From: Escherichia coli
GTDB lineage: Bacteria > Pseudomonadota > Gammaproteobacteria > Enterobacterales > Enterobacteriaceae
DNA: 64,000 nucleotides
Strand: one strand, 5' to 3'
NCBI RefSeq assembly: GCF_024298765.1
Contig: NZ_CP101210.1
Under the pieces are notes generated by a model. That model saw only the letters and a program-made list of their open reading frames with translations, was not told the DNA's origin and made no database searches. Of the stretch, positions 2,450-28,421 are shown piece by piece. A program made the position numbers and the translations under genes. Each line of letters opens with the position of its first letter. The first letter of the stretch is position 1.

Positions 2450-2483
2450 GTTTTAAATACAAAAGCCCCGCTGTCGGGGCTTG
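2450..2483 (-). terminator. Hairpin plus T-run between hsdR stop and hsdM start
   Basis: GCCCCG-CTGT-CGGGGC stem-loop (2465-2480) followed on the minus strand by a U-rich tract; lies in the 63-bp hsdR-hsdM gap. Confidence 0.35.
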
Positions 2484-2494
2484 TCATGTGCGTA

Positions 2495-5911: not shown

Positions 5912-6004
5912 TCATCGCCTTATGTCGTGGATACAACAGCATTTCTGGAAAGAATATCACACTAATTTGGCCGACGAAGTGAGCCGGAAAGGGCGGAATT
6001 ACCA

Positions 6005-10032: not shown

Positions 10033-10581
10033 TCACTGAGCTGTAATCAATGTACAGCGCTGTACCGGACGATGGGTAATGGCGGTCACAACCGGTAACC
10101 CCAGAGACAATGCGACTGTTTTTAACGCAACATACTGACCGGATGTATCACCCCGGGCAACCCGAAAACACCTTTCCACCCGGCATTGTCCGCCAGCACT
10201 TATCACCTGCCAGCTATGTTGCAGTAAATCCACCACTTGCGAACATTGTTCATCAACTGTGACACAGGCTCGCGGGTGACAAATACTCGTCTGGCTGAGC
10301 AGCAACAGGCATCGAATTGTTGCTCCTCCATGTTGTTCCCGCAACCAGCGTAATACCACCGACGATGATGGACTGGCAGTGTGATTGCTCTCAGTAATAC
10401 GTTCATGCAGTTGTCGATAAAAGGAAGTACAGAATGCATGAATCTGTTGCCCGTTGATATTTCCTTCTGCCGAATGGAGTGTGAAGTAAAATGCCAGCAA
10501 ATGCGGCCAGTGGTCCACCGCCTGCTGAACAAAACGCCGGATGTCTCCCGGCTCTGAAATTAAGGCTTCGGTTATTTGCAC
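10033..10581 (-). CDS. Hypothetical protein (possible remnant at the cdiA truncation junction)
   Basis: 182-aa ORF with overlapping alternative frame; no recognisable motifs; low coding confidence. Confidence 0.2.
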   Translation of the reverse strand: MQITEALISEPGDIRRFVQQAVDHWPHLLAFYFTLHSAEGNINGQQIHAFCTSFYRQLHERITESNHTASPSSSVVLRWLREQHGGATIRCLLLLSQTSICHPRACVTVDEQCSQVVDLLQHSWQVISAGGQCRVERCFRVARGDTSGQYVALKTVALSLGLPVVTAITHRPVQRCTLITAQ

Positions 10582-11026
10582 GAAATGTTCCTTTTCAAAC
10601 CCTGTTGGATTTTGTCAAGACGGTACAGACACAGTAAAGCGCGCATCAACACCTGAAAGGTACGATACAAACACAAGTTACAAACAATAAGAACGGAAGG
10701 ACAATTAATCAGTGAGGAATAATAACTAAATTAACCAAAAGAATGTTACTGACAATACCACCAATACTTAAATAGCAATATATTAATTAATGTAAGAACA
10801 GATGCCCGGTAAGACATATACACAATACATCCACAAACACACTCTTTTCATTAAATAAATCACCTGATTAAACCATGAAAGTGTGATGTAAGTCAAAATT
10901 ACTGACACAATCAATTGATAATGATTATCTCTATCATTATCGTGAAATTCGAGAATGAAAGGAGAAGTAGTCATTATAAGTCTTTTATAAATCGTCATCA
11001 TCATAGTAAAGTAGAACACTTTTTAT

Positions 11027-11584: not shown

Positions 11585-12271
11585 ATGGAAATAACAAAAA
11601 ATAAAAATGCAACTATAAAAAAACAGTCATCAGCCGGCTGCTTTTCAATGTTTACTTTATCATTTTCCATTACCTTTATTCCTGCATTTCTTACAAACAG
11701 GCAGGAACTTATATCCAGGGGGCTTCTTGTTCCAGCATTATTTCTTGCTGAATTTCTAATTCTTGTTCCACTGTATTTTATTTTCTTCCGAAAAAGAGAA
11801 GGATTAGGAAGAGGTTCTTTTCGACTGGATGTTTTTTTTACTCTTTTCTCTTTAATAATGATTATTCAGTTATTTGTCCCTTATCTGCTGGCAGTGAGGA
11901 AAACGGAAGAATGGATGATCTCGCAAATGTCTTTTTCCGGGGCCATTTTATGGATTAATATATTTTCTTCCGTACTTCTTGTTCCTGTATATGAAGAGAT
12001 TGTATTTCGAGGGTGTCTTTTTAACTCTTTTAAATTCTGGTTTAATGACAATATTTACATCTCTGCTATTGTAACATCAGTCATATTTTCTGCATTACAT
12101 CTACAATATACTGACTTTCGTACATTTTTGATGCTCTTTCTGATATCGTTAGTTCTTATCAGTGCAAAAATAAAGTCGAATGGCCTGTTAATGCCCATAT
12201 TACTTCACATGGCGATGAATGCAGTCATAACAGGAATACAATATACGTTACAATATCACATAACAGTCTGA
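11585..12271 (+). CDS. CPBP-family (CAAX protease / Abi) intramembrane metalloprotease-like protein, putative bacteriocin self-immunity
   Basis: 228-aa polytopic membrane protein with family motifs EEIVFRG, FSALHL and LLHMAMN; ATG preceded by AAGGGAA Shine-Dalgarno. Confidence 0.75.
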   Translation: MEITKNKNATIKKQSSAGCFSMFTLSFSITFIPAFLTNRQELISRGLLVPALFLAEFLILVPLYFIFFRKREGLGRGSFRLDVFFTLFSLIMIIQLFVPYLLAVRKTEEWMISQMSFSGAILWINIFSSVLLVPVYEEIVFRGCLFNSFKFWFNDNIYISAIVTSVIFSALHLQYTDFRTFLMLFLISLVLISAKIKSNGLLMPILLHMAMNAVITGIQYTLQYHITV

Positions 12272-12695
12272 AATTGTTATTATGAGATATCTATAACACC
12301 TGAAGTTGGAAAAAGAAGCAAATAATTCCTTATAAGGAATCGTTTACTAATATATTTAGATGATCTCATATTTGTTTATGATATACATCTGATTAAGATA
12401 TAATGGATTATAAATTACTCAAAGGTGAACAAATATCTTCGCCTTTTCTCGTAGAAAGAGACTTGAAACTTATAATACATCTATATAAACGTGATTTAAA
12501 TCACGATTTGCAGTAAAAGCAATTGGTATAATTCATTGGTATTACTATTATTTCATCTATTGCACGAACTATTTTACAACAATAAAAAAGATATACAAAC
12601 AGCAAGAAGTAAAAATATTCGGATAAATAAAAATTTTTGCTACCTTGGTTTCTATAGTCTTTATTTCTAAGTTTTTCATAAGCACTCAAAGACTC

Positions 12696-12881
12696 ATGTA
12701 TAGGGACGGTTTAATAATGAAACTATTTTTTTATTTCTCGTTGTTCTTTATAATACAACTTATAAATTCAGACTTAGACACATTAACCCTTTATCTTTTC
12801 ATAAAGAAAATAATTCTTTCGTTACTTGCGAGTGTACTGTTTTTATTTGTTTTATCTTTCTTTAATAAAAAGAGGAAATAA
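12696..12881 (+). CDS. Putative microcin immunity protein (small hydrophobic membrane peptide)
   Basis: Hydrophobic ORF ending 1 nt before the microcin-like ATG; the track starts it at a TTG (12645); in-frame ATGs at 12696 and 12717; resembles MchI/McmI-class immunity peptides in size and position. Confidence 0.5.
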   Translation: MYRDGLIMKLFFYFSLFFIIQLINSDLDTLTLYLFIKKIILSLLASVLFLFVLSFFNKKRK

Positions 12882-12882
12882 C

Positions 12883-13206
12883 ATGAGAAATATAACAACC
12901 GATGAACTTGCTTTAATACATGGTGCAGGATTAGATAAAGATGCATCCGTTGCAATAGGTACTGCGGCTGGTGGTTTTTTAGGTAAAGCAACAAAAATCC
13001 CTGGTGCGGATATAGCAGGAAGTGCAATTGGAGGATATATTGGAGGAGTTATTGCTGATGGTTCAAATAGGACAATAACAATACCATCAAACGGTATTAA
13101 CTATAATCCGGGTATAGGACTTGGAAGTTTTAATCCAAACTACAATGGAGGTTTATTAAACTCAGGATTTAACTCATCAACATCCTCTTCTAGTAGTGGA
13201 AGTTGA
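12883..13206 (+). CDS. Class IIb (siderophore-type) microcin-like precursor, not assignable to a named microcin
   Basis: 107-aa ORF; leader MRNITTDELALIHGA|G of double-glycine type; Gly/Ala/Ile-rich core; C-terminal Ser-rich tail SSTSSSSSGS as in salmochelin-modified microcins; AAGAGG Shine-Dalgarno overlaps the upstream stop; convergent on mchF. Confidence 0.7.
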   Translation: MRNITTDELALIHGAGLDKDASVAIGTAAGGFLGKATKIPGADIAGSAIGGYIGGVIADGSNRTITIPSNGINYNPGIGLGSFNPNYNGGLLNSGFNSSTSSSSSGS

Positions 13207-13215
13207 TTAATTTCT

Positions 13216-13253
13216 AAAGCAGCATAGCTTATTATGCAGCAATGCTGCTTTTA
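13216..13253 (+). terminator. Rho-independent terminator after the microcin-like gene
   Basis: AAGCAGCAT...ATGCTGCTT inverted repeat followed by TTTT, 10 bp after the stop. Confidence 0.45.
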
Positions 13254-13266
13254 GTGATATATTATC

Positions 13267-15369
13267 CTAATTTGTAATTCTAAAAATCCGATCAACTGTT
13301 CTTAAAGTTGTCTCTCTATGTGCAATAATCACCCGGGTGATATTCATCTTTTTTATAGCAGCATTCACGAAACGTTCACTTTCTGTATCAAGAGAACTTG
13401 TAGCCTCATCCATAAATAATATTCCAGGTTTCCGGTATAAAGCTCGGGCAATGAATATACGCTGTTTTTGACCGCCGGAAAGACCTTCCCCCAGTTCACC
13501 TATTAACGTTTCATACCCCATTGGCATTTTCATTATCACATCATGAATATGACTTGCTCTGGCACATTCTGTCATCCATTCGTCGTCTGTTTCTTCTGCA
13601 AACCCACAGATATTTTCACGAATTGATCCTGAAAATAGCCGGTCGTCCTGCATAACACAGGCTATCATACGGTGATAATTATTTATTCCAAGTTGACGTA
13701 TATCCGTGCCATTAACCAGTACTTTTCCACTATCTGGTTCAAACAGTCCACATAATACTTTCATTAATGTGGTTTTTCCGGCACCGGAGGCACCAGTTAT
13801 AGCCACACTTTCTCCCGGAGCCACAGACAAATTCAGACCACTGAATACCTGTGCTGACTGGCTGTCATACCGGTAGCTTAAATCAGTGGTTTCCAGTGAA
13901 ACCGGGCTCATGTCAGCAACGATTTCAATTTCCGGTTTCTTTTCTTCCTTTTCATGTAGTGCAATATCTGCAATGCGCTCATTATGCAGACTCATTATTC
14001 TCAGTTGAAGAAGAAAACTGGTCAGCGAAGCAACCCGATCCGAAAACTGCCCACGAAAAGAACCAAATGCCACAAACATCCCTATTGTCATCTGATTATC
14101 GATCACAAGGCTTGCACCCAGCCATAAAATCGCCACCTGATCACAGGCGGCAACAAAAGTATTTATCCCCCCGAAGAGCAAATCCATCCTGGTTAACTTA
14201 ATACCTGAATTGATCGCATCTATTTTCAGGTTAAGCCAGTGTGTTCCCCGAATCCCAGCCATACCCTGGATTTTTACCGTGGCAATACCATACAGGCTTT
14301 CCATAAAATAGGAGCTGGCCCGGGCCCCCCTGACAAGAGTTTCTTCCGATATTTGCCGGTAATAGCCGTATGTCACCAGACGAATAAGAACGTAAACCAT
14401 GGTAAAACCGAGCACTATCCAGGTAAGATATCCTCCATATAACAGCATCATCACAAAAACACCCACAACCATAATACTGTCCATGATTGCCCCAACAACA
14501 CAGGTGGTAAAGGTGGCCCTCAAAGTGTCAAGGGAGCCAAAACGCGACTGGATATCACCTAATTTACGGCGTTCAAAAAACGCCAGCGGCAGTCTGAGAA
14601 GATGGTTAAACAGACCCGACTGCCACTGTATATTGATGAGCGTGCTCATAACCAGTGAGGACCATGCACGCAGCATACTCACCGCGGCCCTGAGCAATAT
14701 AAAGAACATCAGGCCAGCAGAAATAAGCGTCAGCAGCCCTCTGTCCCCCGCCGGAATCGCATGATCCATAACCAGCTGAGTTCCCACCGGCATTACCAGA
14801 TTGATTGCTTCAATTACAACTGACAGACAGAAAATTTTCGCCAGTGTTCTTTTAATACCGTAAATACTGTTAATCAGTGAACGGAGACTTATGCGGGTCT
14901 GCTGGGTTTCCGCCAGGAATTCACTTCCGGGCCAGACCTCAAGTGCAATGCCCGTAAAATACCGGCTCATTTCCTCCCGACCGAGATATCTTCTGCCTCT
15001 GGCCGGATCATGCAGTACATAACGGTTACGCTTTACGCTGACCAGCACGACGAAGTGACTGAAATCCCAGTGGAGAATACACGGCATTTTGAGGGCACCA
15101 AGTTCATCCAGCTCCAGTGAAAGAGCCCGGGTGACCATCCCCAGCTGCTCCGCTATTCCATTGATTCCTGCAAGGTTTGCTCCACGGGCCGAGAGATTAA
15201 ACTTCCGGCGAAGAGATATCAGGTCAATATTCTTACCAAAATGACCGCATATCATTGCCAGGCAGGCCAGTCCACATTCAGCGGTCTCCGTCTGATGAAT
15301 AACCGGAACACGACGTCGCCAGCGCATATCAAGCTGATTTATAATTTGTCTGAAATTCCCGTTAGTCAT
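13267..15369 (-). CDS. mchF: Microcin ABC exporter with N-terminal C39 peptidase domain (CvaB/MchF family)
   Basis: C39 peptidase motif [15 protein letters not shown], six TM segments, Walker [13 protein letters not shown] signature LSGGQKQR. Track start 15387 is GTG; ATG at 15369 gives [10 protein letters not shown]. Confidence 0.9.
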
Positions 15370-16636
15370 TGAGCGGTCCTGTTGCACTGTGTTTCATGTC
15401 ATAGAAAGGAGAAAGCATCCACTGGTAAATACGCCTTTTTTCCAGAAATAGTGTACTTTCGGCTTTCATTCCATTTTCCAGAGGGAGGTATTTTTCGTCA
15501 TATCTGATAATCTGCTTTTCAGGCATCGCAATGACTTTATACCAGGGAACAGAGTCGCCCGGCGTATTCTGTGGTGCTCCCTTATAGGTCAACATTTCCT
15601 GTGTTGACGCAGGAGTCCTGGATATAGTTTTAACCGTAGCAGAGAACTGCCCAAATTTTTCTGCCGGAAAGGCTTCATAACGAATATTCACTTTGTCACC
15701 AGCCGAAATATAAGGAACAGCATCATTCGGGACCCAGAGAATAAGATAATAGTTTTCAATGTTCTCAGGAATAACCTGCAGAAGGCTGTCTCCGGTATTG
15801 ACCATTTGCCCGACAGTGACACTCAAGGAGTCAACTTTCCCGTCAGTCAACGCCCGGATAATGATTTCGCCCTCCACATCAGTGTTAACCAGTTCTTTCT
15901 GTAACTCATACCGTTGCAGTTCCATCTGGTAGATACGGTTATCAAAATCTGCAGCCTGAGTCTGAATCTGACTCTCCAGAGTGGTTATCTGCAGGGCATT
16001 CTGTTCGTTCTGTCCGCTCAGGCTGAGAAGATTGTTTTGTTGCTGATAATATAATGCCACCTGGTTAGTTAACTGATCTTTATTAATCAGCCCTTTTGCC
16101 TGATAGTTTCTGTAATTCTCCATATTGTTTTTCATTATTTTTATCCCTTCCTCTGCACGCTGTATAATATCTGATGAGCGACGAAACGCATCTGTGTATT
16201 GCAGGCGTTGTTTTTCCAGGGTATCTAGCGTTATTTTTTTACTTTCTTCCAGACGGGAAATAATGTTGTCCACACGAACCAACTGGTTTTCTATATCCCG
16301 ACGATGATTATCAGTGACAATACCACTACGTGTACTTTTACTGATGTCAATCAGATAAACAGGATCCCCTTTTTTTATCAACTGTCCTTCATGAACAAAC
16401 TGCCTGACAACAAATCCCTGTACACCTGAATATATATTGACAGCTCTTGGCCAGGTTGTGACCTCACCACTGACATTAACACGGCGGCTATAGGTACCAA
16501 CAATAATGAACATCAGAAATGCCGTAATAAACACTATGCTTCCCAGCATGATTAACCATAGTGGTATTCCGGGAAGTAATATTGCCCGTCCCTGCCACTT
16601 CATTTTTCTGTTTTCTAAAGCATCCTGACGAAACAA
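15362..16636 (-). CDS. mchE: Microcin secretion membrane-fusion protein (CvaA/MchE, HlyD family)
   Basis: 424-aa [30 protein letters not shown]..., single N-terminal TM plus coiled-coil; overlaps mchF start by 8 bp; first codon is TTG. Confidence 0.9.
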
Positions 16637-16788
16637 AATAGCTCCTCTTACTCACACTTTTCCTGTAATACCTTCACTGGTTAACCGAAATGCTATAATC
16701 AAAGCCAGAAAATATAGAGTCCTGTTAAAATAGTATCAGCGATGCATTTACCCCGTAATTTACAATTATCTCTGTATCTTCAGAGGTA

Positions 16789-17241
16789 CTACGTTTTATG
16801 CAGCCGCTCAGGGATGTATGTCACAATTTTCTTTCGCCTGCTTAACCATCGTACTTCTCCTTCTCCCCATGGCTGAAGCTGTATGAGATAGTCAATAACT
16901 TTTCGACCAAAGCCTGGTTTACAACAGAAATCCAGAATCCAAATCCTTCCATCTTCATTCCATTCAGACGGATGCAACCTGAATTCTGGATCCCTGAGCA
17001 GGCGCGCTTCTGTATCAGCCTCAAGATATGCCCAGGTAATATACGCCAGTGGAAAACCTCGTGAATCAAACAGGAATTTAATCTGATTATGCTGTATCGC
17101 ATATTCAGTCCAGTATTGAATGGTTAACACCGGATACAGACTGTAATTACGATTGTAGAGCATACAACTGACCGCAAAACCGATCTGTTCATAAACAGTC
17201 CATTCATCTTTTCCTCTGATGTTTTCCCTTATATAAGACAT
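16789..17241 (-). CDS. mchD: Microcin maturation protein MchD (MceI-like, HlyC-type acyltransferase family)
   Basis: 150-aa ORF with ATG start directly downstream of mchC; HlyC/toxin-activating acyltransferase-like sequence. Confidence 0.75.
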   Translation of the reverse strand: MSYIRENIRGKDEWTVYEQIGFAVSCMLYNRNYSLYPVLTIQYWTEYAIQHNQIKFLFDSRGFPLAYITWAYLEADTEARLLRDPEFRLHPSEWNEDGRIWILDFCCKPGFGRKVIDYLIQLQPWGEGEVRWLSRRKKIVTYIPERLHKT

Positions 17242-17266
17242 GATTACTATTTCCCTTATATATTTT

Positions 17267-18817
17267 TTACACTGTGTTTCTTATCGGTTCAAGATATCCA
17301 AATGCATCTCTGGAAAACTTAAGCATAAAATTTTTCATATCAGAAATTGCTTCTTGTAAAAAAAGGGGATCATCGCCATGATTATCCAGCAGGATGGCAA
17401 TTTTTTCGCACATATTCTCTTTCCTCAGCTCTTCCCTGGGTTGCAGCCTTTTCATGGTATGATGTTCAATTTCTTTCAGGAGTAATGAGGCATTTATCTG
17501 ACGTCTGGTACTGCCTTGCGTCAGCCAGTGGATGGCCTGGGAAAAACACTGTTGTGCAACGGTGAAATAAACATCATTCTTGATGCTACTATTCAGTGCC
17601 TGCTTTTGATTATGCCTATGATGGATTAGCGTCACAACCAACTTTTGCAATGGTGAACCATCCTGATTGACAATATCTTGGGCATGTGATTTCTCGCAGT
17701 ATTGATTGAGTAATGCAACAAAACTGTTAACCAGTTCTTTCAATATATCAGGTATCTCTTTTTGTGTTATAAATTCTCCAGGAATACCCAACAGTTCTAG
17801 ATAACAGTAATAACATGCTTCATGAAAAGTTTTCTGAAATATCTCCTCAACCTTCAAACGGGCTGCAAGAGTGAAGTCAGGGTCAAACATATATTTTCCG
17901 ATATACAAGCAGAGATCAGACAGCCCTTGCATAAGTACCATCGGTTCTTTTGCCAGTTCAGCTAATCTTAGTTTATACCCAAAATCAGCTGGGGAATCTC
18001 CCGGAAACAGACAACTGAGTCCGCTAAAATCCATTAATCTGCCATCCATTGCAATATTAGAAGGAGAAGTTGTCAATCTCAGGAAACGTGTTCGACAAAA
18101 TGCCATTTGCCAGGCCTCACGACGTGCCAGTTCACATAACCCCTCAATGCAATAAATCCGGGGATCAGTTCGTGCTTCAGCATCAATTTCTTCCGGTGGT
18201 ACAGGTAGATATCCTGGCAGCTTGTGGATCACAGATCTAACCCGACAGGCATCGTGAATTAACAGACTGGAATACTCCGGTTTTACTTGGAAGTAAGGTG
18301 CCCGTTCAAAATGCGCCGGACGAACAACAGGCTCACGTACCAACAGGGCTCTTCGTGATTTCCTACCGGAGCGCTCAAATGCCTTTTCAGTATAGAGATC
18401 TGTAAGTAAAACCGCCCGAACCCGCACAGCACTATAAGGTAATATTTGAGCCAGTACTTCTCCCCACAAAGCCTCATATATTGCATGAACAGCGCCGAGT
18501 GCACCATTAGAATGACGTTCGTCAGTACCTTCGCCAACCAACGGATTACTTCCTATTCCTTTAACCTGGTAGTTACCATCAAACCCACAACGTGCACCAC
18601 CTCCATTACGCTGAATACCACTGCCACCATAGCGCTCTGCATGGAACACTTTGGCAGAAGCTGTACTGCCAGGATCGATAATATAACTGCAGGCATTTTG
18701 CAGCTCGTCTGGATTTCTGACATCCTCTGCACACCAGATTAATGAGGCCTTGATCTGCCTGGCAGTGAAAGGCACCAGGTTTTCATTCAGTTCAGAAAGT
18801 GAACACTGATGACTCAT
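17267..18817 (-). CDS. mchC: Microcin maturation protein MchC (MceJ-like)
   Basis: 516-aa ORF with ATG start, immediately downstream of mchB in the mchIBCDEF order. Confidence 0.8.
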   Translation of the reverse strand: MSHQCSLSELNENLVPFTARQIKASLIWCAEDVRNPDELQNACSYIIDPGSTASAKVFHAERYGGSGIQRNGGGARCGFDGNYQVKGIGSNPLVGEGTDERHSNGALGAVHAIYEALWGEVLAQILPYSAVRVRAVLLTDLYTEKAFERSGRKSRRALLVREPVVRPAHFERAPYFQVKPEYSSLLIHDACRVRSVIHKLPGYLPVPPEEIDAEARTDPRIYCIEGLCELARREAWQMAFCRTRFLRLTTSPSNIAMDGRLMDFSGLSCLFPGDSPADFGYKLRLAELAKEPMVLMQGLSDLCLYIGKYMFDPDFTLAARLKVEEIFQKTFHEACYYCYLELLGIPGEFITQKEIPDILKELVNSFVALLNQYCEKSHAQDIVNQDGSPLQKLVVTLIHHRHNQKQALNSSIKNDVYFTVAQQCFSQAIHWLTQGSTRRQINASLLLKEIEHHTMKRLQPREELRKENMCEKIAILLDNHGDDPLFLQEAISDMKNFMLKFSRDAFGYLEPIRNTV

Positions 18818-19088
18818 CTGGCAGTATTCTCCGTTTCAATTTTCATAAAAGAGTGTTCATAAAAGAGCAAGTAAGTGTCCTGACAGCTTCTTCCTTATTA
18901 CAGTAAAACTCTATTAATTACACATAAATTAAAAAATTATTTATCAACGACTGTAAATCATATCTTCATCAGTAAAGTGTTGAACATAAAAACACACTTA
19001 TAAATGGATCTTCTATCTGTTTTAAACAAAAAGGATATATTTTACAGGTACTACCGAAAAAGTGCCTGTAAAATAAATAAAAATATAA

Positions 19089-19316
19089 TTAGCTACCGCC
19101 ACCAGCAGAAGAACTGGCACTACCACTTCCCACGGTCGAGCCAATTGCTGTTGTCAAACCGGCAGATACGGCTCCAACTACAACCCCAAGTGGACCACCA
19201 GGTATTCCGGCGAGAGCTCCAACAATAGCTGCAGCACCTGCAGCATTAGCTGAAGTCGCTGGCGCACCTCCCGCCCCGGAAATATATCTTAACTGTGATT
19301 CTGTTATTTCTGGCAT
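19089..19316 (-). CDS. mchB: Microcin H47 precursor
   Basis: 75-aa ORF MPEITESQLRYISGAGGAPATSANAAGAAAIVGALAGIPGG...GSGSASSSAGGGS: double-glycine leader, Ala/Gly-rich core and Ser-rich tail matching MccH47 as I recall it (recalled residue 2 is R, here P). Confidence 0.9.
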   Translation of the reverse strand: MPEITESQLRYISGAGGAPATSANAAGAAAIVGALAGIPGGPLGVVVGAVSAGLTTAIGSTVGSGSASSSAGGGS

Positions 19317-19343
19317 ATAAACTGCATATAAACTCCATCATAT

Positions 19344-19553
19344 TTAACTTCCGTTTTTCCAGTCTGACCAGACCAGAATCCTTCGAATCCCATGAATCAG
19401 CTCAATAAAACCAAGAAATATTATAAAGCTTAGAAAAACGTCAACATAAGAATTCCCTTCGCCAACAATCCGAAGGGATGAAAGTGAAACCAATAAGATA
19501 GTAATAGGTAAACTGAATATAGCCGTCAATTGGGACAGTTTTTTATAACTCAT
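19344..19553 (-). CDS. mchI: Microcin H47 immunity protein
   Basis: 69-aa hydrophobic two-TM peptide immediately upstream of mchB; ATG start. Confidence 0.85.
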   Translation of the reverse strand: MSYKKLSQLTAIFSLPITILLVSLSSLRIVGEGNSYVDVFLSFIIFLGFIELIHGIRRILVWSDWKNGS

Positions 19554-19964
19554 TAATCCCTACCTGTTGCTTTATTTTCATTATGAAAAGTTACCAAATC
19601 TTAGCACCTCAGTCAGGAGAGTCAGGTCATCGATAAAGAATATTCCAGTAGAGTGGCGCTCATGATCAAAGATAACAGCAAAGTTGATGACAGTGCTGAC
19701 CGACTGTCATTTACAGAAACCCTGTTTGTAGCAAATTCCATCTTACCTGACCTCACCCAGACAAAGACAAAAGAGAATGATTGTTATTTACTTTTCAAAA
19801 AAAGTGTCATATTGTCCATATAAAGTCAAGAGGTATTTTACGTTATGTCACTGATGCAATTGTTAGTCAGGATCTCATGGTTGTCGCTCATGTATAACCT
19901 GAGACTTGAACGCACACTAATAGCGCTGACGGTCATACATCGGGAAATGTGAGGAGGCATAAGA

Positions 19965-20210
19965 ATGAATTGTGATAATAATCACAGAAATGAAGAATTC
20001 ATTGTTACCTTTGATAAAGGCAACAAGCAAGACAATTCAAGACGAAAACACGATAATTTTCCTATAGAGGTAGAATCCTCCGTAGAGCAGGAGACACACT
20101 GTATCACAAATAATAAGTCAGCTTCCGGTATAGTAACACATGACTATGATGCCGATTATATTTGTGGTTGTGGTGAAATTATGTGTCCTGGTTGCGGTCA
20201 TGACCTATAA
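19965..20210 (+). CDS. mchS4: Small Cys-rich protein, mchS4-like
   Basis: 81-aa ORF with strong GAGGAGG Shine-Dalgarno 8 nt upstream; C-terminal CGCGEIMCPGCGH cluster; position matches mchS4 in the H47 locus order as I recall it. Confidence 0.5.
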   Translation: MNCDNNHRNEEFIVTFDKGNKQDNSRRKHDNFPIEVESSVEQETHCITNNKSASGIVTHDYDADYICGCGEIMCPGCGHDL

Positions 20211-20365
20211 CAAACATTTTTGCAAACTGATACCTGATCAGGTACAAGCCTGTTGATTATTATGCTGAATATTTCATGTTATAAAACCATCGATATAAAC
20301 ATTAACAAGAAAAAACATATATTGTTTATCTGAACATTTATCGATGGAAAACCAAAGGGGAAAGT

Positions 20366-20800
20366 ATGTATCTTACGAAAAAGATTATAATAAGTATGAT
20401 GTTTATATTACCATCTGCTGCATTTTCATCAGATCCACCTCCCCTTCAACAATCGTTAGAAAAAACAACCTATTTTTCTATAGGTATGAATGGGTTTATA
20501 GGCTATCAGAGCGAAGGGGAAAAATTATACACACACATTCTTACATTAGATAATCCCGAAGAGATATTTAAAAATATAATAGAAAATAGAAAGTCAACTA
20601 AGGAGTCTAAAATTTATGCTGCTTGTGGGCTATATTATTTAAACGTAGAAAATATAGAGTCATTGTTTAATGAAAATGATAAACAAGAATATATGTCTGT
20701 CTTAAGAGGGGATATTTTAACAAAAATAAAACTGAATGATATTCTGAATTCTGTGATAATAAATGGTTGCAACACCAAATTAATATCTGAACATAAATGA
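20366..20800 (+). CDS. mchS3: Signal-peptide protein upstream of the I47-like microcin gene (candidate mchS3)
   Basis: 144-aa ORF with N-terminal signal peptide MYLTKKIIISMMFILPSAAFS; AAAGGGG Shine-Dalgarno; sits where an immunity gene would be expected. Confidence 0.5.
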   Translation: MYLTKKIIISMMFILPSAAFSSDPPPLQQSLEKTTYFSIGMNGFIGYQSEGEKLYTHILTLDNPEEIFKNIIENRKSTKESKIYAACGLYYLNVENIESLFNENDKQEYMSVLRGDILTKIKLNDILNSVIINGCNTKLISEHK

Positions 20801-20816
20801 GCAGGAGGTTTTTAAA

Positions 20817-21053
20817 ATGAGAGAAATATCAGATCACATGCTTGATTTCGTGAAAGGAGGGATGAATCTTAATGGATTACCTAGTTCTACTAATGTAATA
20901 GATCTACGAGGAAAAGATATGGGAACATATATTGATGCTAATGGAACATGCTGGGCTCCGGGTACTCCATCCATCATCATGTATCCGGGGGGAAGTGGAC
21001 CTTCTTATAGTATGAGTAGTTCCACATCCAGCGTAAACAGCGGCACATCATAA
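20817..21053 (+). CDS. mchS2: Microcin I47-like precursor
   Basis: 78-aa ORF MREISDHMLDFVKGG|MNLNGLPSSTNVIDLRGKDMGTYIDANGTCWAPGTPSIIMYPGGSGPSYSMSSSTSSVNSGTS: double-glycine leader, Ser-rich tail; closely resembles MccI47 as recalled; GCAGGAGG Shine-Dalgarno. Confidence 0.75.
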   Translation: MREISDHMLDFVKGGMNLNGLPSSTNVIDLRGKDMGTYIDANGTCWAPGTPSIIMYPGGSGPSYSMSSSTSSVNSGTS

Positions 21054-21085
21054 ATACCCTCCGGCATGGCCGGAGGGTATTTATG
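21054..21085 (+). terminator. Rho-independent terminator after mchS2
   Basis: Perfect 11-bp stem TACCCTCCGGC/GCCGGAGGGTA with 3-nt loop, then T-rich tract, starting 1 nt after the stop. Confidence 0.5.
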
Positions 21086-21337
21086 ATGTGCCTGTAAGAC
21101 TCTACTTCTGTCGTCTCTTTACAAAGGCATATGATCTGTCATTTTGTACCAGACATCTTAACGAGAGCCTTTTCATATATTACTTACATACGTGAAATCT
21201 ACAGTATAAAGCAAAAATTTTATTAAACCTGTTTTATATTTATCATCAATACAACAGATTTAATTCCGGAAAGTCACTCATCATCCCTTGAATGAACGTC
21301 ATTTGATGTATTATTCTTACACTTGGATTAATTTAAG

Positions 21338-22612
21338 ATGATACCTATGAAAAACTATCTTTTCCAGACTCCCGAAGATATTTGTGTACAGTTAAAAAAA
21401 ATGACACATCCTGTCACAATAAGAACAACAGATATTGCTAATTTCTGGCACTATCTTGAGTCAGCAACACTTCCAGTGATCACAAAAAGCACCACTACAG
21501 AAAATCGGGAGGTTACATTTCTGTGGCGCTCAGAGAAAGCACTGCAAGGCGTATATCTTCGCCTGAATCGTGTTACAGATAAAAAAGACGTCAAAAAAGG
21601 ACTAATGACTCATATCCCTTCGACAGATATCTGGATGCTGACACTGGTGTTACCAGCTTCATATCGGGGCTCATACTCATTTATAGAAATTCCCACAGAT
21701 ATGACACAAAAAGACATATTTCAACTAGGAAGTCGCTTCTCTCCATTACCCGGTAAATCTGATCCATTTAACAAAACAGCAGAAATAAATATACGAGGAT
21801 TCGGAGAATCAGTCCTTTCTCTTGATATGGCTCCTGAACAAAAGGAATGGGATGATACTTCCCATAAATGTACAGGTATTCTTTCAATATTACATTCCTT
21901 TGTTGCAGGATATCAACGCCGGATTCGTTTATATTTCCCCCTGAATCCAACATCAGTACCTCTTGGATTACTTGTGTTACCTGATGCTGAAACATGGTTT
22001 GACCGGATAGATATTACCCGGGCATTAGATATGGCCATCACCACTGGTCGTATCACGCCAATGGCAATTATGGGGATAGACAATATTAATGAATCTGATC
22101 GTATGAATATACTGGGAGGCAATAAAGAACTCATCTTTGATATAGCGGAAAATCTGATACCCCAGTTATACAGAGACTATCCGGATATCGTATGGGCTGG
22201 TCGCTCTAATACTGTACTGGCCGGGCAGAGCCTCGGTGGAGTGACAGCACTGATGGCAGCTATATATGCGTCGACAACATTTGGTACAATCATTAGTCAC
22301 TCACCTTCAATGTGGTGGAACCCTGACCAGGGCAGCCCGATCTTGTTTACTGAGAATAATACCTCCTGGGTAAGTGAGCAGATACTTTCAGCGCCTCCGA
22401 AAGATGTAAATATCCGACTTGGAGTCGGTTCTTTAGAAGGTACAACCGTCTCACATGTTCAGCGATTGCATCATTCGTTAATCGCAGCTGGTTTGGAAAG
22501 TAACCTCACTGTCTATACCGGTGGTCACGATTATGCTTGGTGGCGCGGAGCAATTATTGATGAATTAGCAAATTATAATTGCAGGAAGGTATCAAATAAT
22601 AACTCTGTGTAA
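21338..22612 (+). CDS. mchS1: Enterobactin/salmochelin esterase homologue (IroD/Fes-like)
   Basis: 424-aa ORF with serine-hydrolase motif GQSLGG; position between mchS2 and mchA in the H47 locus. Confidence 0.8.
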   Translation: MIPMKNYLFQTPEDICVQLKKMTHPVTIRTTDIANFWHYLESATLPVITKSTTTENREVTFLWRSEKALQGVYLRLNRVTDKKDVKKGLMTHIPSTDIWMLTLVLPASYRGSYSFIEIPTDMTQKDIFQLGSRFSPLPGKSDPFNKTAEINIRGFGESVLSLDMAPEQKEWDDTSHKCTGILSILHSFVAGYQRRIRLYFPLNPTSVPLGLLVLPDAETWFDRIDITRALDMAITTGRITPMAIMGIDNINESDRMNILGGNKELIFDIAENLIPQLYRDYPDIVWAGRSNTVLAGQSLGGVTALMAAIYASTTFGTIISHSPSMWWNPDQGSPILFTENNTSWVSEQILSAPPKDVNIRLGVGSLEGTTVSHVQRLHHSLIAAGLESNLTVYTGGHDYAWWRGAIIDELANYNCRKVSNNNSV

Positions 22613-22753
22613 AATATCGTTTTATCGTCCGATAACTCTTTCTGCAATATTATTATGGGAGACTGTCTCATTTATTTAGTGATGTCCTTCATTTATGTGA
22701 TGAAGGACATTATATTACTCATAACATTTCTCGTTGAAAATTTCAGCAATACG

Positions 22754-23878
22754 CTACAATTGTTTCCCGTTGTTTTTTAATTTTCTCATCAAAACCTCTG
22801 CGATCTCTGCAGGAGTGGGTTGTTCAGCCATTTCAGCGGCTACCTGATCTGAACAGAAGCGTAGTGAATCATCATAAAGCAGGCGATTTACCAAATCACT
22901 GGTCAGTCCATGCTTGTCCGGAATAATCCCACACCCACGCTTCGCAACAATTTCTGCATTAACAGAGCGATCTGCACCTTCTCCAAACACAATCTGTGGT
23001 ATTCCACTATACAGCGCTGTCAGGGTATTACCTGCGCCACCGTGATGAATAAATCCATCAGCTCCATTAAGGAATACACCCATAGGTATCCAGTCAACCA
23101 GACGTACATTTGATGGTAGTTTTCGTAATCCAGTACGAGCATTTATTGCAAGTTGCAAAATGATATCAGCATCAACTTCATTTGCTGAATCCATAACCCA
23201 TGAAATCAGCTCCAGACCATCAACCATTGGTTTTACAGTGCCAAGGCTGATGAGTAAACGTTTCCGATCAGAATCCCTGTCCCACCATGTTTCCTTTACA
23301 GCACCTCCGTTATAAGGAATATATCGCATTGAGATAATCGGTTCTTCAGCATTTTTAAGAATGCTCATACTTGGGGGAGCAACATCAATCCATGCTAAAT
23401 CACATAGTGGACCGCTGACTCCATGCCGCCTGTAAGCATTGCTTAAAGAACGGTTTAACATCTGAATATGGGCAGATGTATGCGCGAATCCAACAGCCAG
23501 CATCACTGAAGAAATTCTATATTTAGCAGCAACCAATGGGCCTGCCGGACCAAGCGGGGGATAGACTATTAAATCTGGCCTCCATTTTCCTGCAAAATCG
23601 ATGAGGTTATCTGCCATTTCATCGCTAAAAAAAGAGAAATGACCAATAATATTACTTTTTTTCCTCAACTCTTCCTGATGACGATATCCAGCCTCTGAAT
23701 CTAAACTTGGAGCTGCATCAAAAACAACCAGTCCAGCTTCTGCTGCTTTATTCGCGAATTTGCCAGCGCTACTAATTACTACATCATGTCCGATTACACG
23801 AAAGGCCTGAGCCAGAGAAATCAATGGGTATAACAAACCGTACAGCGGAGGGCCAATAAAAAGAATACGTTTTCGCAT
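22754..23878 (-). CDS. mchA: Enterobactin C-glycosyltransferase homologue (IroB-like)
   Basis: 374-aa GT-B glycosyltransferase-like ORF (MRKRILFIGPPLYGLLYP..., C-terminal HHGGAGNT nucleotide-sugar motif). Confidence 0.85.
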   Translation of the reverse strand: MRKRILFIGPPLYGLLYPLISLAQAFRVIGHDVVISSAGKFANKAAEAGLVVFDAAPSLDSEAGYRHQEELRKKSNIIGHFSFFSDEMADNLIDFAGKWRPDLIVYPPLGPAGPLVAAKYRISSVMLAVGFAHTSAHIQMLNRSLSNAYRRHGVSGPLCDLAWIDVAPPSMSILKNAEEPIISMRYIPYNGGAVKETWWDRDSDRKRLLISLGTVKPMVDGLELISWVMDSANEVDADIILQLAINARTGLRKLPSNVRLVDWIPMGVFLNGADGFIHHGGAGNTLTALYSGIPQIVFGEGADRSVNAEIVAKRGCGIIPDKHGLTSDLVNRLLYDDSLRFCSDQVAAEMAEQPTPAEIAEVLMRKLKNNGKQL

Positions 23879-24554
23879 TAAAAAAGTCCGTCTTCTGCTT
23901 ACCTGTTTATTTTTCTATCGCTAAGAAAACATAATTAATATTATTTTTATGTGAGCTTATGCACAAAAATAACAAAGTATCTTATCTTCTGGTAGAGATA
24001 CAGGATACAGTTTGTAGGAGCTTTCTTTTTTTGAACAATGATTTGCAGGACAGTTATGCCAACCTAGCAGAATCAGTATCACAACAATAAATGACAGATC
24101 ATACCTGAAATTTGAATTAACAGGCATCATGAATGTCAATAGTCTAAGCGGTTACTACTTACATCGCTTGCATAAATACTAAACACTGACTAGAAAAGTA
24201 TTGGATAACCCCGTCACTAAAAGTAACACTTCGGTTATTTGCTCGGAATGTATCAACGCCAAGATTGTTAGCCGTTACGCCTTATATCACTGGCGCTGAC
24301 AAATGTTTCTTTTCTAATTTACTGAACCGGCGCAGACTTACAGAAAAACACTCCGGCACCGGTGTAATGCCAGTTATAAACAATGTGAATGGAATGACGA
24401 ATCAGTCAGGAAAGAGCTACAATCTGCTGGCTGACCGGAGAGGGTCAGCAGGAAGATGAACGGTAATGTCGCCAGCACCAGGGGCAGGGCCGGGTTCCAC
24501 AATACCAGCGCCGGCATTTTGCACATTGCCAGCGTACCGGCATCACAACACGTT

Positions 24555-24791
24555 TCATGCAGCTGCTCCTCGTGATTCCTCAATTCGCTGCTGCATCCAC
24601 TGCTCCACTTCACTTTTGTACCAGCGGCTGCTGCGGCCCAGCTTGATGGGTTTCGGGAAATGGCCTTCACTGATCAGCTTGTAAAACCATTTATCTGTCA
24701 TACCGGTGAAACTGGTGATGTAGTTCATGTCGATCAGGGGATCGTCGGCACGCAGCAACACGCAGTCGTGGCCTGTCATTGAGGTCAACAT
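24555..24791 (-). CDS. alpA: AlpA-family phage/island transcriptional regulator
   Basis: 78-aa ORF with the AlpA-type HTH signature ...ISEGHFPKPIKLGRSSRWYKSEVEQW. Confidence 0.75.
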   Translation of the reverse strand: MLTSMTGHDCVLLRADDPLIDMNYITSFTGMTDKWFYKLISEGHFPKPIKLGRSSRWYKSEVEQWMQQRIEESRGAAA

Positions 24792-24859
24792 GGTCAGAAT
24801 ATCCTCTGTGAGATTTATGAAGGTTGTGCGAATGCGGGGAAAGGTGCTGAGCCGTATTC

Positions 24860-25567
24860 TCAGAACGGTCCTGCAGATCCGGGATAGCCGGGATTACCGG
24901 CGAGGCAACGGGCTTCCGGATCGCACACACCACGACGATCGCGGGCGAAATCACTGAACGCCCAGATCAAATCTTTGAGGATGTCTTCGCAGTCCGGTGA
25001 ACGACTGTCCAGCACCACATCCCGGGTTATCTGTTTCTGGTACGGTGCCGCTTCCCCCGGTGACGCGAAGCCCAGTACGTTGCTCCAGGCATCCAGAATC
25101 AGCCGGTCCAGTTCGGGGCCGTCGAAATACTCCTGTCTGACGCACAGCACCACGTGGTATTCCGGCTTTTCCGGATGACGGGTCAGGAGCCAGCAAAGGT
25201 CGCGTCCGGGTTTCGCATTCATCAGCGCACTGACGGTTTCGATAAAATCCATACCAAACCAGGTCTGTCTGCTGTTGAAGGCGTTGTCATGTTCCCACGG
25301 CAGACGAAGCAGGATCCGCCGTATCCGTGAGCCGGACTGCTCACGCAGCGCACGCTCAAGGACGCCGATGACTTTGTTCTGATAAGATGGCCAGAAGGGT
25401 GCCAGGCTATAGTCGAAATAAGGAATAGCATTCATAAGATATGTTCCGTTATGCGCAGCCCACAATGCGTCCTGCCCGTGAATGAGCTGACGTGTTATGG
25501 CTTGCGGATGAGATTGATGGAATAAGTGAAGAACTGAAGCAGAACGGGAAGATAAGGGACAGAACAC
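24860..25567 (-). CDS. Inovirus Gp2-family (YfjJ/YagK-like) protein, paralogue 1; start uncertain
   Basis: Similarity to the two other paralogues in the window; track start is GTG, first in-frame ATG is at 25435 (MNAIPYFDYS...). Confidence 0.55.
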   Translation of the reverse strand: MFCPLSSRSASVLHLFHQSHPQAITRQLIHGQDALWAAHNGTYLMNAIPYFDYSLAPFWPSYQNKVIGVLERALREQSGSRIRRILLRLPWEHDNAFNSRQTWFGMDFIETVSALMNAKPGRDLCWLLTRHPEKPEYHVVLCVRQEYFDGPELDRLILDAWSNVLGFASPGEAAPYQKQITRDVVLDSRSPDCEDILKDLIWAFSDFARDRRGVCDPEARCLAGNPGYPGSAGPF

Positions 25568-25681
25568 CGGATTCAGGTTCAGGATGAATGATCTCCGTTG
25601 ACTTCAGTTCACATCATTAATCAATGCGGTAAGTTTTTACCGACGGAGTGTTTCCAGGAGCGGAGGCTCAGGCCTTAAGCT

Positions 25682-26248
25682 TCAGAAGTGAGGCTTACGA
25701 GGACGCCCTGCAGCAGGACGTTCAGGAACTTCATTGCAGCCGTAGGCACACAGCCCGTCTTTTTGTTCTTCTTTCGCCAGATAATGCAGGGCACCGCGAA
25801 TATTATCGATGCTTTCAGGATCGTTGTGGCGCACAGGAATGTTGATGTTGTATGCATAATGCGGCTGATATGTACAGCGGTGCGCCGAACCACAGTTATA
25901 CGTAATTGCCTGCCAGCATTCCGCTATCCGCTCCGCAAAGGGATATATTTTTTTAACCCTCTGACGATCGATCCAGAAAACGACATGCGCATGAAAACCA
26001 TGATCAGCCGTCCATTCAATCACCCAGAAGAAACCAACGATATTTTCAAATTGTTCCACCTGCTCCAGCAGCATACGCAACTGTAATTCAAGCCAGCGAT
26101 GATCAGGTTGTAAGAAATCGGGCGTATCTTTCCTGTAGAAGAAATCCATCCGTAAGGCCCGCAGGCAGGAATAGCGTGCCATCATTTGATTGATGTGATT
26201 GTCAAGTAAAGCGGTAAAAAACCAGTTTGGTGTGTAAGATTTAGGCAT
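25682..26248 (-). CDS. Inovirus Gp2-family (YfjJ/YagK-like) protein, paralogue 2
   Basis: 188-aa ORF with family-typical core (...GFFWVIEWTADHGFHAHVVFW...); tandem with paralogue 1 downstream of alpA. Confidence 0.6.
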   Translation of the reverse strand: MPKSYTPNWFFTALLDNHINQMMARYSCLRALRMDFFYRKDTPDFLQPDHRWLELQLRMLLEQVEQFENIVGFFWVIEWTADHGFHAHVVFWIDRQRVKKIYPFAERIAECWQAITYNCGSAHRCTYQPHYAYNINIPVRHNDPESIDNIRGALHYLAKEEQKDGLCAYGCNEVPERPAAGRPRKPHF

Positions 26249-27665
26249 GTTGATGACTCCTGAAAGTTAATGATGTTTTAAGCTCTGTGAGCGAATTAAT
26301 GCTTTCGCTCATAATCAGATCTAAAACGGTAATAACTTACAGATGGTATTTATCAGGCATGCTGTAACAGAATGGATACGACGGATTATTAACGACACAC
26401 AGCGTTGTGCTGAAGGGTATGAGTTATCTGATGGCATTGTCTATAGAGATGAGATAAACGAGGTGCGAAGAAAATACAGATTCAATACAACACAGTGAAA
26501 TACAGAAAAATACGAACTGTAATCCCGCTGCCAGGCGGTTAGGAAACATATTACAACTATAAGCTCATGATTTGTAAATTTGCTCTCAGTGAGTCTGAAA
26601 AAACGTTTATAAGGTCACCACAATAAACTCACACGCGCTTATTCAATCTGTTTTCCAGGATATGAACGTTAACGACACACGATAGCATAAGACAACATAC
26701 AATGGATGAATAATTTTCACCCAGTACCTTAAACAATACAACCGGCAACAAATATAATCAGAAATTCACTCTGTTAATTCTGTTGTTTATCCTGCGCTGT
26801 TAAACATGACGGAATCATGGATACCTTATCAAAGAGTAAACATTCAGTTAATCTGTGATGACAGAGAAATTGTTTCCAACCAGAATAGTTAAAACACTTC
26901 AGATAAACAATCATTGTTAAGCAAATACAGTTCATGATGGATAAGATTAAAATCAATTGCTGTTTCACTGAAAATGAGAACAGATGGATATCAGCAATAG
27001 CGTAGTAGAGAATAACTTATCCGAACATCATATGAGTTACAGTAATTATGATTGAGGGGGATGGAGTGGATACGATAACAAGAGTAAATAAAGACAGAGT
27101 AAAAGTAAAGGGCAAGTGTAATAATAGTAATAAACCTAAATTAAAATTATCCATGTTTGATGTAAAAATAATAATATACTGACAACCATGAAGGTAAGAA
27201 AAAGAGAGTGCAGGTATCAGGAAGATCTCAGGATATGAAGATTCCCACAGCACAGATTTAAAATTAGTCGAATATAATAAATTTAAAAACCTTAATTAAA
27301 ATGTAATCTCATCCATGGTTAACATGCTCCTGAAAAGGAAAGTTACAAATACCGTATGCTACCAACTAATTACAACAATGATATATGTACATTCAGTAAG
27401 AATACAGATAAAATATTAATACCAACTTCCAGTATCAAGATCGTATCGCGAACTTCAGATGCGCTATGAGGCAGTTCAATTTTTAACTTTCGTTTTCCTC
27501 TTCCTCCCTGGCTTCATATGCATAAGCGACTTGAAAGACCCGATGATAGTTACAATTTCAGGTTGTGGCATGACGATCAATTTGTAACTGAAACAATGAA
27601 CGGTAACGCTGCCATATAAACATCAAAATGCGAGCATTACAGCGACATTGAACCGATTAGATGTA

Positions 27666-28421
27666 TCACTCATAATCAGAACAAGATGATGTATCCTGAG
27701 ATATAAGAAAATCATCAAGAGAACCTCCGGCTTTTATTGCTTCTGCAATAACATTAGGCCGACGACCTTGTCCACTCCAGTACATTGTTTGACCGTTATA
27801 CTCATATCTGTATTTATGCCCTCCTGACACACTTTTTCTGCCTGCCTGTAATTTTTTGCCAAATTCACGTTCGTCGATCATGGTAATGATATAGCGACGC
27901 ATTTCACCCATTCTGAGCTCAATGGCGTCCATCCCAATGAGCTCACCGGTCTTTACCAGACGGTAGTGCTTTGGCCGGTGGGGTTTGGCGGTTCGCTTTT
28001 TGACAAGCAGAGCCTTACCCCGCGAGCTCAGACGTACTGGTACCATCCGCATTTTATCGTGTGCGGTGGCGATCATTCTGCCGATGGTGGAAACACTCGG
28101 GCAGGTCAGATGGCGCTGTGCGCACCAGGGCTTCAGGCGAACAAAAATCTGCTCTTTACCGAGGTTTGGCAGCTCTGTCCTGAGGCGTCGAATCTCTTTC
28201 AGCACATCGGGATGCCAGTGCTTTTTTCGTCGCACCAGAGGTGCCTTACTGTGCGGGATTAGCCCCTCAGGTCCTCCCTTGTTCAGTAACTGACGCCACC
28301 AGTAAAGCGTGCGGCAGGACACGCCAAAGGCTTCAGAAGCCGCAGAAATACCGTGTTTATCCCAGAAGTGCAGAGCCTTCATTCTCATTGTTGCTATATC
28401 AGCCATCACTGAAAGCCTCAA
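27666..28421 (-). mobile_element. IS transposase remnant (IS3/IS481-like N-terminal HTH, truncated catalytic core)
   Basis: N-terminal MKALHFWDKHGISAASEAFGVSCRTLYWWRQLL typical of IS transposase HTH; DDE core begins then is lost to an unrelated C-terminus; track start is TTG, ATG at 28406; no inverted repeats identified. Confidence 0.5.

Follow-up and report, generated by a model that had tools for sequence, protein, structure and literature searches.

The stretch of Escherichia coli DNA analysed here, 64 kb of contig NZ_CP101210.1 and called the window below, contains between 10.5 and 24.3 kb a mobile island of about 13.7 kb for class IIb (siderophore) microcins, in the version that carries microcins H47, I47 and Ec W. 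Three modules of a toxin gene with its immunity gene are present, mchI-mchB for H47, mchS3-mchS2 for I47 and Ec WI-Ec WA for Ec W, together with genes for export and maturation (Table 1). We consider it very probable that this description, with the I47 immunity protein MchS3 as a soluble protein of the periplasm, explains the region. Earlier publications already cover the island, its three microcins, their common machinery and the role of MchS3 in immunity. The only modestly new element is the view of MchS3 as a soluble periplasmic member of a widespread family paired with I47-type cores, which is suggested by its sequence and predicted structure.

An earlier note on this DNA had described three distinct double-glycine peptides with Ser-rich tails that share one exporter and one maturation set, and a check of the open reading frames (ORFs), leaders and tails bears this out. 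All three precursors have a leader of 15 residues that ends in GG or GA, and all have a terminal Ser. MchB has no Cys and 6 Ser among its last 12 residues; MchS2 has one Cys and 7 such Ser, and Ec WA has no Cys and 8 such Ser. This agrees with the class IIb precursor features given by Mortzfeld et al. (PMC11634061), namely a Ser-rich end with a final Ser, a GG or GA leader of at most 15 residues and fewer than two Cys. A further class IIb feature is a transmembrane ORF at a distance of at most 200 bp. MchI, with two hydrophobic segments, lies 27 bp from the H47 gene, and Ec WI lies 1 bp from the Ec W gene. The neighbour of I47, which ends 16 bp upstream of it, is hydrophobic only in an N-terminus that resembles a signal peptide, and none of its segments passes the transmembrane threshold. 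The genes of a class IIb cluster are also found: a C39-peptidase ABC exporter with a HlyD-type fusion protein (MchF and MchE), a glycosyltransferase, an enterochelin esterase, and a MchC/MchD (MceI/J-type) pair, of which MchC is recognised by synteny only.

The same note reported that the exporter (MchEF), the maturation pair (MchCD) and the glycosyltransferase/esterase pair (MchA/MchS1) are each present once, and we find the same. The count is taken from strain N21, which matches the window in sequence over 12000-30000. Its RefSeq annotation of the corresponding 64-kb stretch has mchF, the HlyD-type partner, the MchC/MchD pair, the glycosyltransferase and the esterase once each. RefSeq calls the mchF product 'microcin export peptidase/ABC transporter MchF', and the RefSeq records of two matching genomes name mchF, the HlyD protein, mchB, mchI and mchS3. 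The domains were confirmed with Pfam, save that the Pfam search found no domain in MchC, which is named from synteny and the literature.

Table 1. Features of the microcin island in the window, in order of position.
Feature	Position	Strand	Basis and remarks
att-like left direct repeat	10547..10588	.	imperfect repeat family D1
Fur-box-like site	10917..10935	.	GATAATGATAATCATTATC consensus, 2 mismatches; left island end
hypothetical membrane protein, 152 aa	11027..11485	+	ORF; annotated hypothetical protein; PGAP start 11039; hydrophobic segments
mcmM-like CPBP/Rce1-type intramembrane protease, 228 aa	11585..12271	+	Pfam Rce1-like 63 bits; NCBIfam CPBP matches
Ec WI, Ec W immunity peptide, 54 aa	12717..12881	+	165 nt; ends 1 nt before Ec WA; strongly hydrophobic
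Ec WA, microcin Ec W precursor, 107 aa	12883..13206	+	leader MRNITTDELALIHGA, tail FNSSTSSSSSGS
terminator-like hairpin after Ec WA	13236..13248	+	GCAGCAATGCTGC then TTTTAG; consensus match only
mchF, C39-peptidase ABC exporter, 700 aa	13267..15369	-	Pfam Peptidase_C39, ABC_membrane, ABC_tran
mchE, HlyD-type membrane fusion protein, 424 aa	15362..16636	-	Pfam HlyD families; RefSeq
mchD, HlyC-like acyltransferase-fold maturation protein, 150 aa	16789..17241	-	Pfam HlyC 44 bits; position as in H47 system
mchC, partner of MchD in siderophore attachment to peptide, 516 aa	17267..18817	-	ORF; mchCDEF position
mchB, microcin H47 precursor, 75 aa	19089..19316	-	leader MPEITESQLRYISGA, tail SGSASSSAGGGS; RefSeq 'microcin H47'
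mchI, H47 immunity peptide, 69 aa	19344..19553	-	RefSeq MchI; two segments over hydropathy threshold
mchX, small ORF upstream of mchI, 39 aa	19622..19741	-	ORF
mchS4 (presumed), 81 aa, Cys-rich C-terminus	19965..20210	+	ORF; annotated hypothetical protein
mchS3 (mciI), I47 immunity protein, 144 aa	20366..20800	+	starts MYLTKKIIISMMFILPSAAFSS; NCBIfam MchS3 (NF041432)
mchS2 (mciA), microcin I47 precursor, 78 aa	20817..21053	+	leader MREISDHMLDFVKGG, tail SSSTSSVNSGTS; AGGAGG ribosome-binding site
11-bp hairpin then TTTAT, directly after mchS2 stop	21055..21079	+	read from sequence; kept in NCTC10444
mchS1 (mcmK), enterochelin/salmochelin esterase, 424 aa	21338..22612	+	Pfam Enterochelin_N + Esterase
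mchA (mcmL), IroB-like glycosyltransferase, 374 aa	22754..23878	-	Pfam EryCIII-like N + C domains; RefSeq glycosyltransferase
att-like right direct repeat	24210..24251	.	imperfect repeat family D1

The sharing of one machinery is the known design of class IIb islands, in which several operons, each with a precursor and its immunity gene, are grouped around a single set of genes for maturation and export; strain CA46, for example, has H47, I47 and M (PMC7472721). Active H47 and active I47 have each been obtained from a plasmid with no more than the immunity and toxin genes of that microcin and mchCDEFA (PMC9542533), and the same has been done for Ec W (PMC12999681). The dependence of each peptide on the same machinery is therefore already documented in plasmid systems. 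The C-terminal glycosylated enterobactin and entry through catecholate receptors are likewise published for the expression systems of all three (PMC9542533, PMC12999681). There is thus little new in the shared machinery itself, and the experiments proposed in the earlier note have largely been done with plasmids.

Applied to the window, the scheme runs as follows. MchA glycosylates enterobactin, MchS1 linearises it, and MchCD couples the siderophore to the terminal Ser of the peptide; MchF, the C39-peptidase ABC exporter, cuts off the leader and exports the peptide together with MchE and TolC. The leaders and tails of the three precursors are alike while their cores are completely different, which is the likely reason why they can share enzymes: the common leader and Ser-rich tail would be recognised, rather than the toxin cores. 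Self-protection is specific to each module, and MchI and Ec WI are small inner-membrane peptides. The sequence or earlier publications establish the identities of the genes, the shared architecture, the activity of each microcin with mchCDEFA, and specific immunity by MchI, Ec WI and MchS3.

Fifteen E. coli chromosomes among the matches listed, which come from human and poultry isolates, have 99.5-100% identity to the 18-kb core of the region (12000-30000); the island is a gene cluster backed by homology and not a chance pattern. At least 80% of this core is present in 38 of the 5426 complete E. coli genomes that made up our collection. The cluster is bracketed by the two D1 repeats, which have a 42-nt core that is 81% identical between the copies and a spacing of 13,663 bp. 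The H47 system has been described as a 13-kb island between imperfect attL and attR repeats of 148 and 144 bp, with 76% identity (Azpiroz 2011, PMC3191183). The spacing of the D1 repeats fits this island, and we call them att-like from their position and spacing.

By sequence identity, the peptide at 12883, which the earlier note left unassigned, is microcin Ec W. Its gene is nucleotide-identical to the published Ec W gene (NZ_LR134092 3367929-3368252) and has the same protein accession, WP_001390454.1. The published Ec WA is a peptide of 107 aa with a 15-aa leader ending in GA, and its 165-nt immunity ORF lies one nucleotide upstream (PMC12999681). It was described in 2025 from the second class IIb cluster of NCTC10444, where microcin M's place between mchF and mcmM is taken by an unrelated gene on the opposite strand; Ec W is antibacterial, and Ec WI is required for growth of the producer (PMC12999681). 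The position of Ec WA in the window is as published, between mchF and mcmM and in inverted orientation. The gene that we name mcmM here is that of the CPBP/Rce1-type protein; a review gives mcmM as a 228-aa protein with seven transmembrane domains, and the protein in the window has the same length.

The closest known system is the cluster that Bhattarai, Bucci and Mortzfeld described from NCTC10444 in 2025 (PMC12999681). It encodes H47, I47 and Ec W and shares with the window the gene order mcmM, Ec WI-Ec WA, mchFEDC, mchB-mchI, mchS3-mchS2, mcmK, mcmL, with an identical Ec WA in the place of microcin M. Ec WI differs from the NCTC10444 copy by two residues, and MchI and MchS3 also differ by one or two residues each. 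MchB of the window has Pro for Arg at residue 2. The I47 leader reads VKRG in the second cluster of NCTC10444 (L002, about 11865-12098), but VKGG in the window, where the GG site is intact; the VKRG copy may not be exportable, to judge from its leader. The I47 tail reads ...SVNSGTS (78 aa) in the window, and ...SANSGS (77 aa) in NCTC10444. The islands of E. coli H47, CA46 and CA58 for MccH47, MccI47 and MccM are also similar, in having one export and maturation set for several toxin-immunity pairs and an mchS3-mchS2 operon (PMC7472721), in an island of about 13 kb flanked by imperfect direct repeats (PMC7472721, PMC3191183). They carry mcmI-mcmA, whereas the window lacks this pair and has the unrelated Ec W module on the opposite strand instead. 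More distant is the microcin E492 system of Klebsiella pneumoniae RYC492, which has the glycosyltransferase, the esterase, the MceIJ/MchCD pair, the C39 ABC exporter with its fusion protein and the Ser-rich tail in common with the window, but has other toxin and immunity genes; MchB scores 18 bits against the E492 family model, for which the cut-off is 50.

The Ec WI-WA pair is found in 116 of the 5426 genomes, O104:H4 outbreak strains among them. In the O104:H4 outbreak lineage the pair is 99.6% identical, and only part of mchS2 is present (bases 61-229 of the gene). One relative of Ec W (P0005) is 74% identical and has no Ser-rich tail, and another (P0007), from a plasmid of Salmonella enterica, ends in a Gly/Ser tail.

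The neighbour of the I47 gene is where the island departs from the usual pattern. The earlier note had pointed out that the I47 peptide is preceded by a 144-aa signal-peptide protein, which is atypical compared with a small membrane immunity peptide; hydropathy and the features of its family agree. The protein is MchS3/MciI, the accepted I47 immunity protein. It scores 137.2 bits against NCBIfam NF041432 (cut-off 100), with residues 31-135 aligned to positions 1-105 of the model. According to reviews that cite Poey 2006, mchS2 encodes the I47 precursor and forms an operon with mchS3, which provides the immunity (PMC7472721). Plasmids for I47 production carry mciI-mciA, and a plasmid with mciA and without mciI kills its host on induction (PMC9542533). 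A Raoultella immunity protein, that of Ro I47, is encoded beside an I47-type toxin and is identical to MchS3 at 64 of 135 positions (PMC11634061).

The distribution of the two genes is what would be expected of a toxin and its immunity gene. Full mchS3 is present in 164 E. coli genomes and near-full mchS2 in 146, and in 145 of these 146 the two are contiguous. The toxin is thus essentially never found without mchS3, while mchS3 persists alone, which is the pattern expected of an immunity gene. MchS3 also has the class II immunity feature of being encoded beside its cognate toxin and inherited with it. Outside E. coli, a full-library search gave MchS3 relatives in 93 representative clusters. 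Counting the window, an I47-like peptide with a GG or GA leader follows the MchS3-like gene at a distance of 15-35 bp in 10 of 21 independent loci, a biased sample, given that 15 of the loci came from a scan in which a 15-sequence alignment acted through one peptide pattern only. Toxins were recognised with a small profile, since diverged ones escape a strict YIDANG motif. The conserved core of these peptides is ...STNVxDxRG...GxYIDANGxCWAPGT...MYPxGG, and the paired loci include those of Mixta theicola, Serratia bockelmannii, S. proteamaculans, Pantoea latae (where the toxin is truncated) and 'Burkholderiaceae bacterium 16' (where it is frameshifted). Most of the I47-like peptides outside E. 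coli have no Ser-rich tail, and some end in a Cys-containing segment. A class IIb microcin is thought of as a toxin core joined to an uptake tail; this idea is established, and the tail-less relatives of I47 and Ec W fit it.

In the other loci of the 21 the MchS3-like gene stands alone, and several of these are orthologous copies of one locus in Serratia, with a LysR regulator on one side and an ABC-F gene on the other. Such orphan genes, with signal peptides and no adjacent toxin, are seen in Serratia loci L015, L017-L020 and L024, at about 3900-4410; the ABC-F gene is just downstream in L015, L018 and L024, and the LysR-type regulator is upstream in L017-L019. They may provide stand-alone immunity against I47-type toxins. 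Two Burkholderiaceae-type assemblies (L010 3646-5640 and L022 3893-4715) have both an I47-type toxin and an MchS3-like gene. One of these copies is directly after a gene for a HlyD-type fusion protein, and the other is frameshifted in both genes.

Several features indicate where MchS3 acts. Its N-terminus has a basic n-region with two lysines, a short hydrophobic core and a cleavage-type motif, SAA/AFS. With a 19-residue window and a transmembrane threshold of 1.6, the hydropathy maximum of MchS3 is 1.37, compared with 2.05 for MchI and 2.49 for Ec WI. The signal-like segment at the N-terminus is its only hydrophobic stretch. The mature protein thus lacks the transmembrane helix that is typical of class II immunity proteins and that MchI (two segments) and Ec WI (at least one) do have. 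In 51 relatives, a basic n-region is present in 46, an AXA-like site after the hydrophobic core in 49, and exactly two Cys in the domain in 48; C87 and C135 of MchS3 are nearly invariant in the family alignment. The AlphaFold model of MchS3, made from 61 sequences, is a compact helical domain with a beta hairpin, at pLDDT 88.6 and pTM 0.79. Past the signal-like segment, the domain of about 105 residues has a soluble-type fold with pLDDT above 90. The N-terminal features, the two Cys, the lack of a transmembrane segment and the confident model together suggest that MchS3 is most likely a Sec-exported, disulfide-bonded, soluble periplasmic protein. Class II immunity proteins have been described as inner-membrane proteins with transmembrane helices (PMC12219008, PMC11634061). 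A lipoprotein was also considered for E. coli MchS3 and rejected, as there is no lipobox and only one distant member of the family has one.

On this basis, MchS3 would be exported by Sec, lose its signal peptide, and neutralise mature I47 that re-enters the periplasm or leaks back into it, before the toxin meets its target. Neutralisation would probably be by binding to the conserved core of I47.

Several points limit this proposal. A fusion of MchS3, a GS linker and I47, run in AlphaFold with 10 paired rows, gave no confident interface, and the toxin part had pLDDT 35-54; this gives direct binding no support, but is not evidence against it. A counterselection plasmid expresses mciA without its leader, and the cells die on induction (PMC9542533). 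This I47 is presumably cytoplasmic, so that its target would be reachable not only from the periplasm, and immunity in the periplasm fits only if the leader-bearing precursor is harmless, as has been reported for microcin V (PMC12219008). The assignment of immunity to mchS3 goes back to reviews and later users, and it is assumed that this strain, with its own MchB and I47 alleles, makes all three microcins in active form. Finally, the signal peptide is read from sequence features, and an uncleaved N-terminal anchor would fit these too. In that case MchS3 would cross the inner membrane once, keep its domain in the periplasm and protect at the membrane surface, and would resemble in this the immunity protein of colicin M. 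We regard this as an unlikely but serious alternative. Among the 51 family members, 15 have an uncharged N-terminal stretch of at least 20 residues and 27 have a hydropathy window of 1.6 or more, always in the N-terminal segment. In reviews, the immunity proteins of class IIb, and MchS3 among them, are placed in the inner membrane on account of a putative transmembrane region (PMC7472721). The hydrophobic core of E. coli MchS3 is, however, short, with 16 uncharged residues including the cleavage region and a hydropathy maximum of 1.37; the AXA-like motif comes right after the core in nearly all members, and the member with the lipoprotein-type motif, LVSC, also points to processing.

The assignment of immunity itself is much more secure. 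The earlier note had allowed that some other small ORF might provide it, but no membrane-type small ORF flanks mchS2 in the ORF list, and the pairing of MchS3 with I47 is kept across genera as well as in all but one of the near-full mchS2 genes of E. coli. We therefore give very little weight to the suggestion that MchS3 has some other periplasmic role and that protection comes from such an ORF or from the CPBP protease McmM. It draws on the departure of MchS3 from the usual small transmembrane pattern and on the presence of the protease at 11585-12271, since other systems link proteases of the CPBP type to immunity against bacteriocins. Yet the working I47 plasmid consists of mciI, mciA and mchCDEFA only, without mcmM (PMC9542533), MchS3 and I47 remain paired in loci that have no McmM close by, and the literature assigns I47 immunity to mchS3/mciI (PMC7472721, PMC9542533, PMC11634061). 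It is also rather improbable that one of the three microcins is impaired by the private alleles of the strain, so that the number made in active form falls below three. The residue at position 2 of the leader is Arg in two of the three window leaders and in canonical MchB, but Pro in the window MchB; the I47 tail with an extra Thr is found in only 26 of the 165 genomes with mchS2; and VKRG in place of VKGG in NCTC10444 indicates that damaged alleles circulate. Against this, the mchB and mchS2 frames are intact, with the GA or GG cleavage site, the terminal Ser and the ribosome-binding sites present; class IIb tails vary widely among functional microcins (PMC11634061); and both alleles are common to several human and poultry isolates.

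The preferred reading, in which MchS3 is soluble in the periplasm, has parallels elsewhere. The colicin M immunity protein Cmi and the pesticin immunity protein Pim face the periplasm and are not embedded in the membrane, and Cmi has a stabilising disulfide; the toxins that they counter are large enzymes. This is an analogy of function only, with no relationship in sequence or fold, and the I47-type toxin is a 6-kDa peptide; in structure searches with the MchS3 model, Cmi and Pim were not among the matches listed. The fold of the model does resemble the N-terminal domain of the spliceosome protein Prp38, with 7-14% identity, but that protein is eukaryotic and nuclear, and no common function is implied. 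We lean, by a small margin of confidence, towards a broader proposal built on the predicted structure. MchS3 would represent a new class of immunity protein, Sec-exported, soluble and disulfide-bonded, with a Prp38-like helical fold, that neutralises the I47 core in the periplasm; MchS3 and the I47 core would form a widespread two-gene module of Enterobacterales and Burkholderiaceae, mostly without a siderophore tail and in some cases, as in Serratia, with MchS3 as an orphan; and I47 of E. coli would be this module with a siderophore-uptake tail added.

These results have some practical meaning. The 'hypothetical protein' at 12883 can now be named Ec W. mchS2 is overlooked by routine annotation in almost all genomes: PGAP/RefSeq has no feature under the match in 38 of 40 sampled E. 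coli genomes and a 'hypothetical protein' in the other two. Carriage of I47 is therefore invisible to surveys based on annotation, and is under-counted. MchS3 breaks the rule of mining pipelines that immunity is a small membrane peptide next to the toxin, so that such modules would be missed or paired wrongly. I47 is under development against carbapenem-resistant Klebsiella, and a periplasmic MchS3, if true, would be a handle on its target.

Some details of the I47 and H47 modules remain to be described. Canonical I47 has 77 aa and the NCTC10444 ending; the extra Thr of the window allele precedes the terminal Ser (21040-21053), and the exact allele occurs in 26 of the 5426 genomes. Several of the genomes that have it also have a 100%-identical Ec W pair. 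The hairpin at 21055-21079, as read from the DNA, is a likely operon terminator. An out-of-frame ORF of 69 aa at 20344-20553 was considered as a hidden immunity peptide and rejected, as it is not hydrophobic and reads through in one metagenomic variant only. That variant is a metagenome-derived H47/I47 cluster (L029 6001-6456, P0012), in which the upstream out-of-frame ORF is fused into the MchS3 domain to give a protein of 151 aa with no signal peptide; either the deletion is real or the assembly may be wrong here.

MchB is identical to canonical MchB apart from Arg2Pro in the leader (MPEITESQ...), which results from a single nucleotide change at 19312, and RefSeq still names it microcin H47 (WP_071780941.1). 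The gene order mchX-mchI-mchB is named in PMC9542533. A weak Fur-like site, matching at 14 of 19 positions, is found at 19773-19791. The legend to a figure of the H47 island mentions regulatory genes outside the toxin-immunity boxes (PMC3191183). From its position, we take the 81-aa ORF at 19965-20210 to be mchS4, a gene with a regulatory role in the H47 system.

At the left end of the island, the site at 10917-10935 is the only one in the window with three or fewer mismatches to GATAATGATAATCATTATC, where 0.04 would be expected by chance. It is about 90 bp upstream of the ORF for the 152-aa membrane protein, which precedes mcmM and the Ec W genes and for which family searches gave no match. 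This candidate Fur site may mark a rightward iron-regulated transcript. A scan of 10.7-24.2 kb for sigma-70 promoters was uninformative, with 44 sites against 43 expected.

Just left of the island is a contact-dependent inhibition system on the minus strand (about 1-8450), consisting of cdiB and a cdiA that runs off the start of the window, so that two different competition systems are adjacent. To the right, between the microcin cluster and nanC/fim (about 24.5-47 kb), the RefSeq annotation indicates the rest of a larger island. This part includes genes of the inovirus Gp2-like type, the toxin-antitoxin pair CbtA/CbeA, genes for antirestriction and RadC proteins, and one for a restriction endonuclease that binds phosphorothioated DNA.

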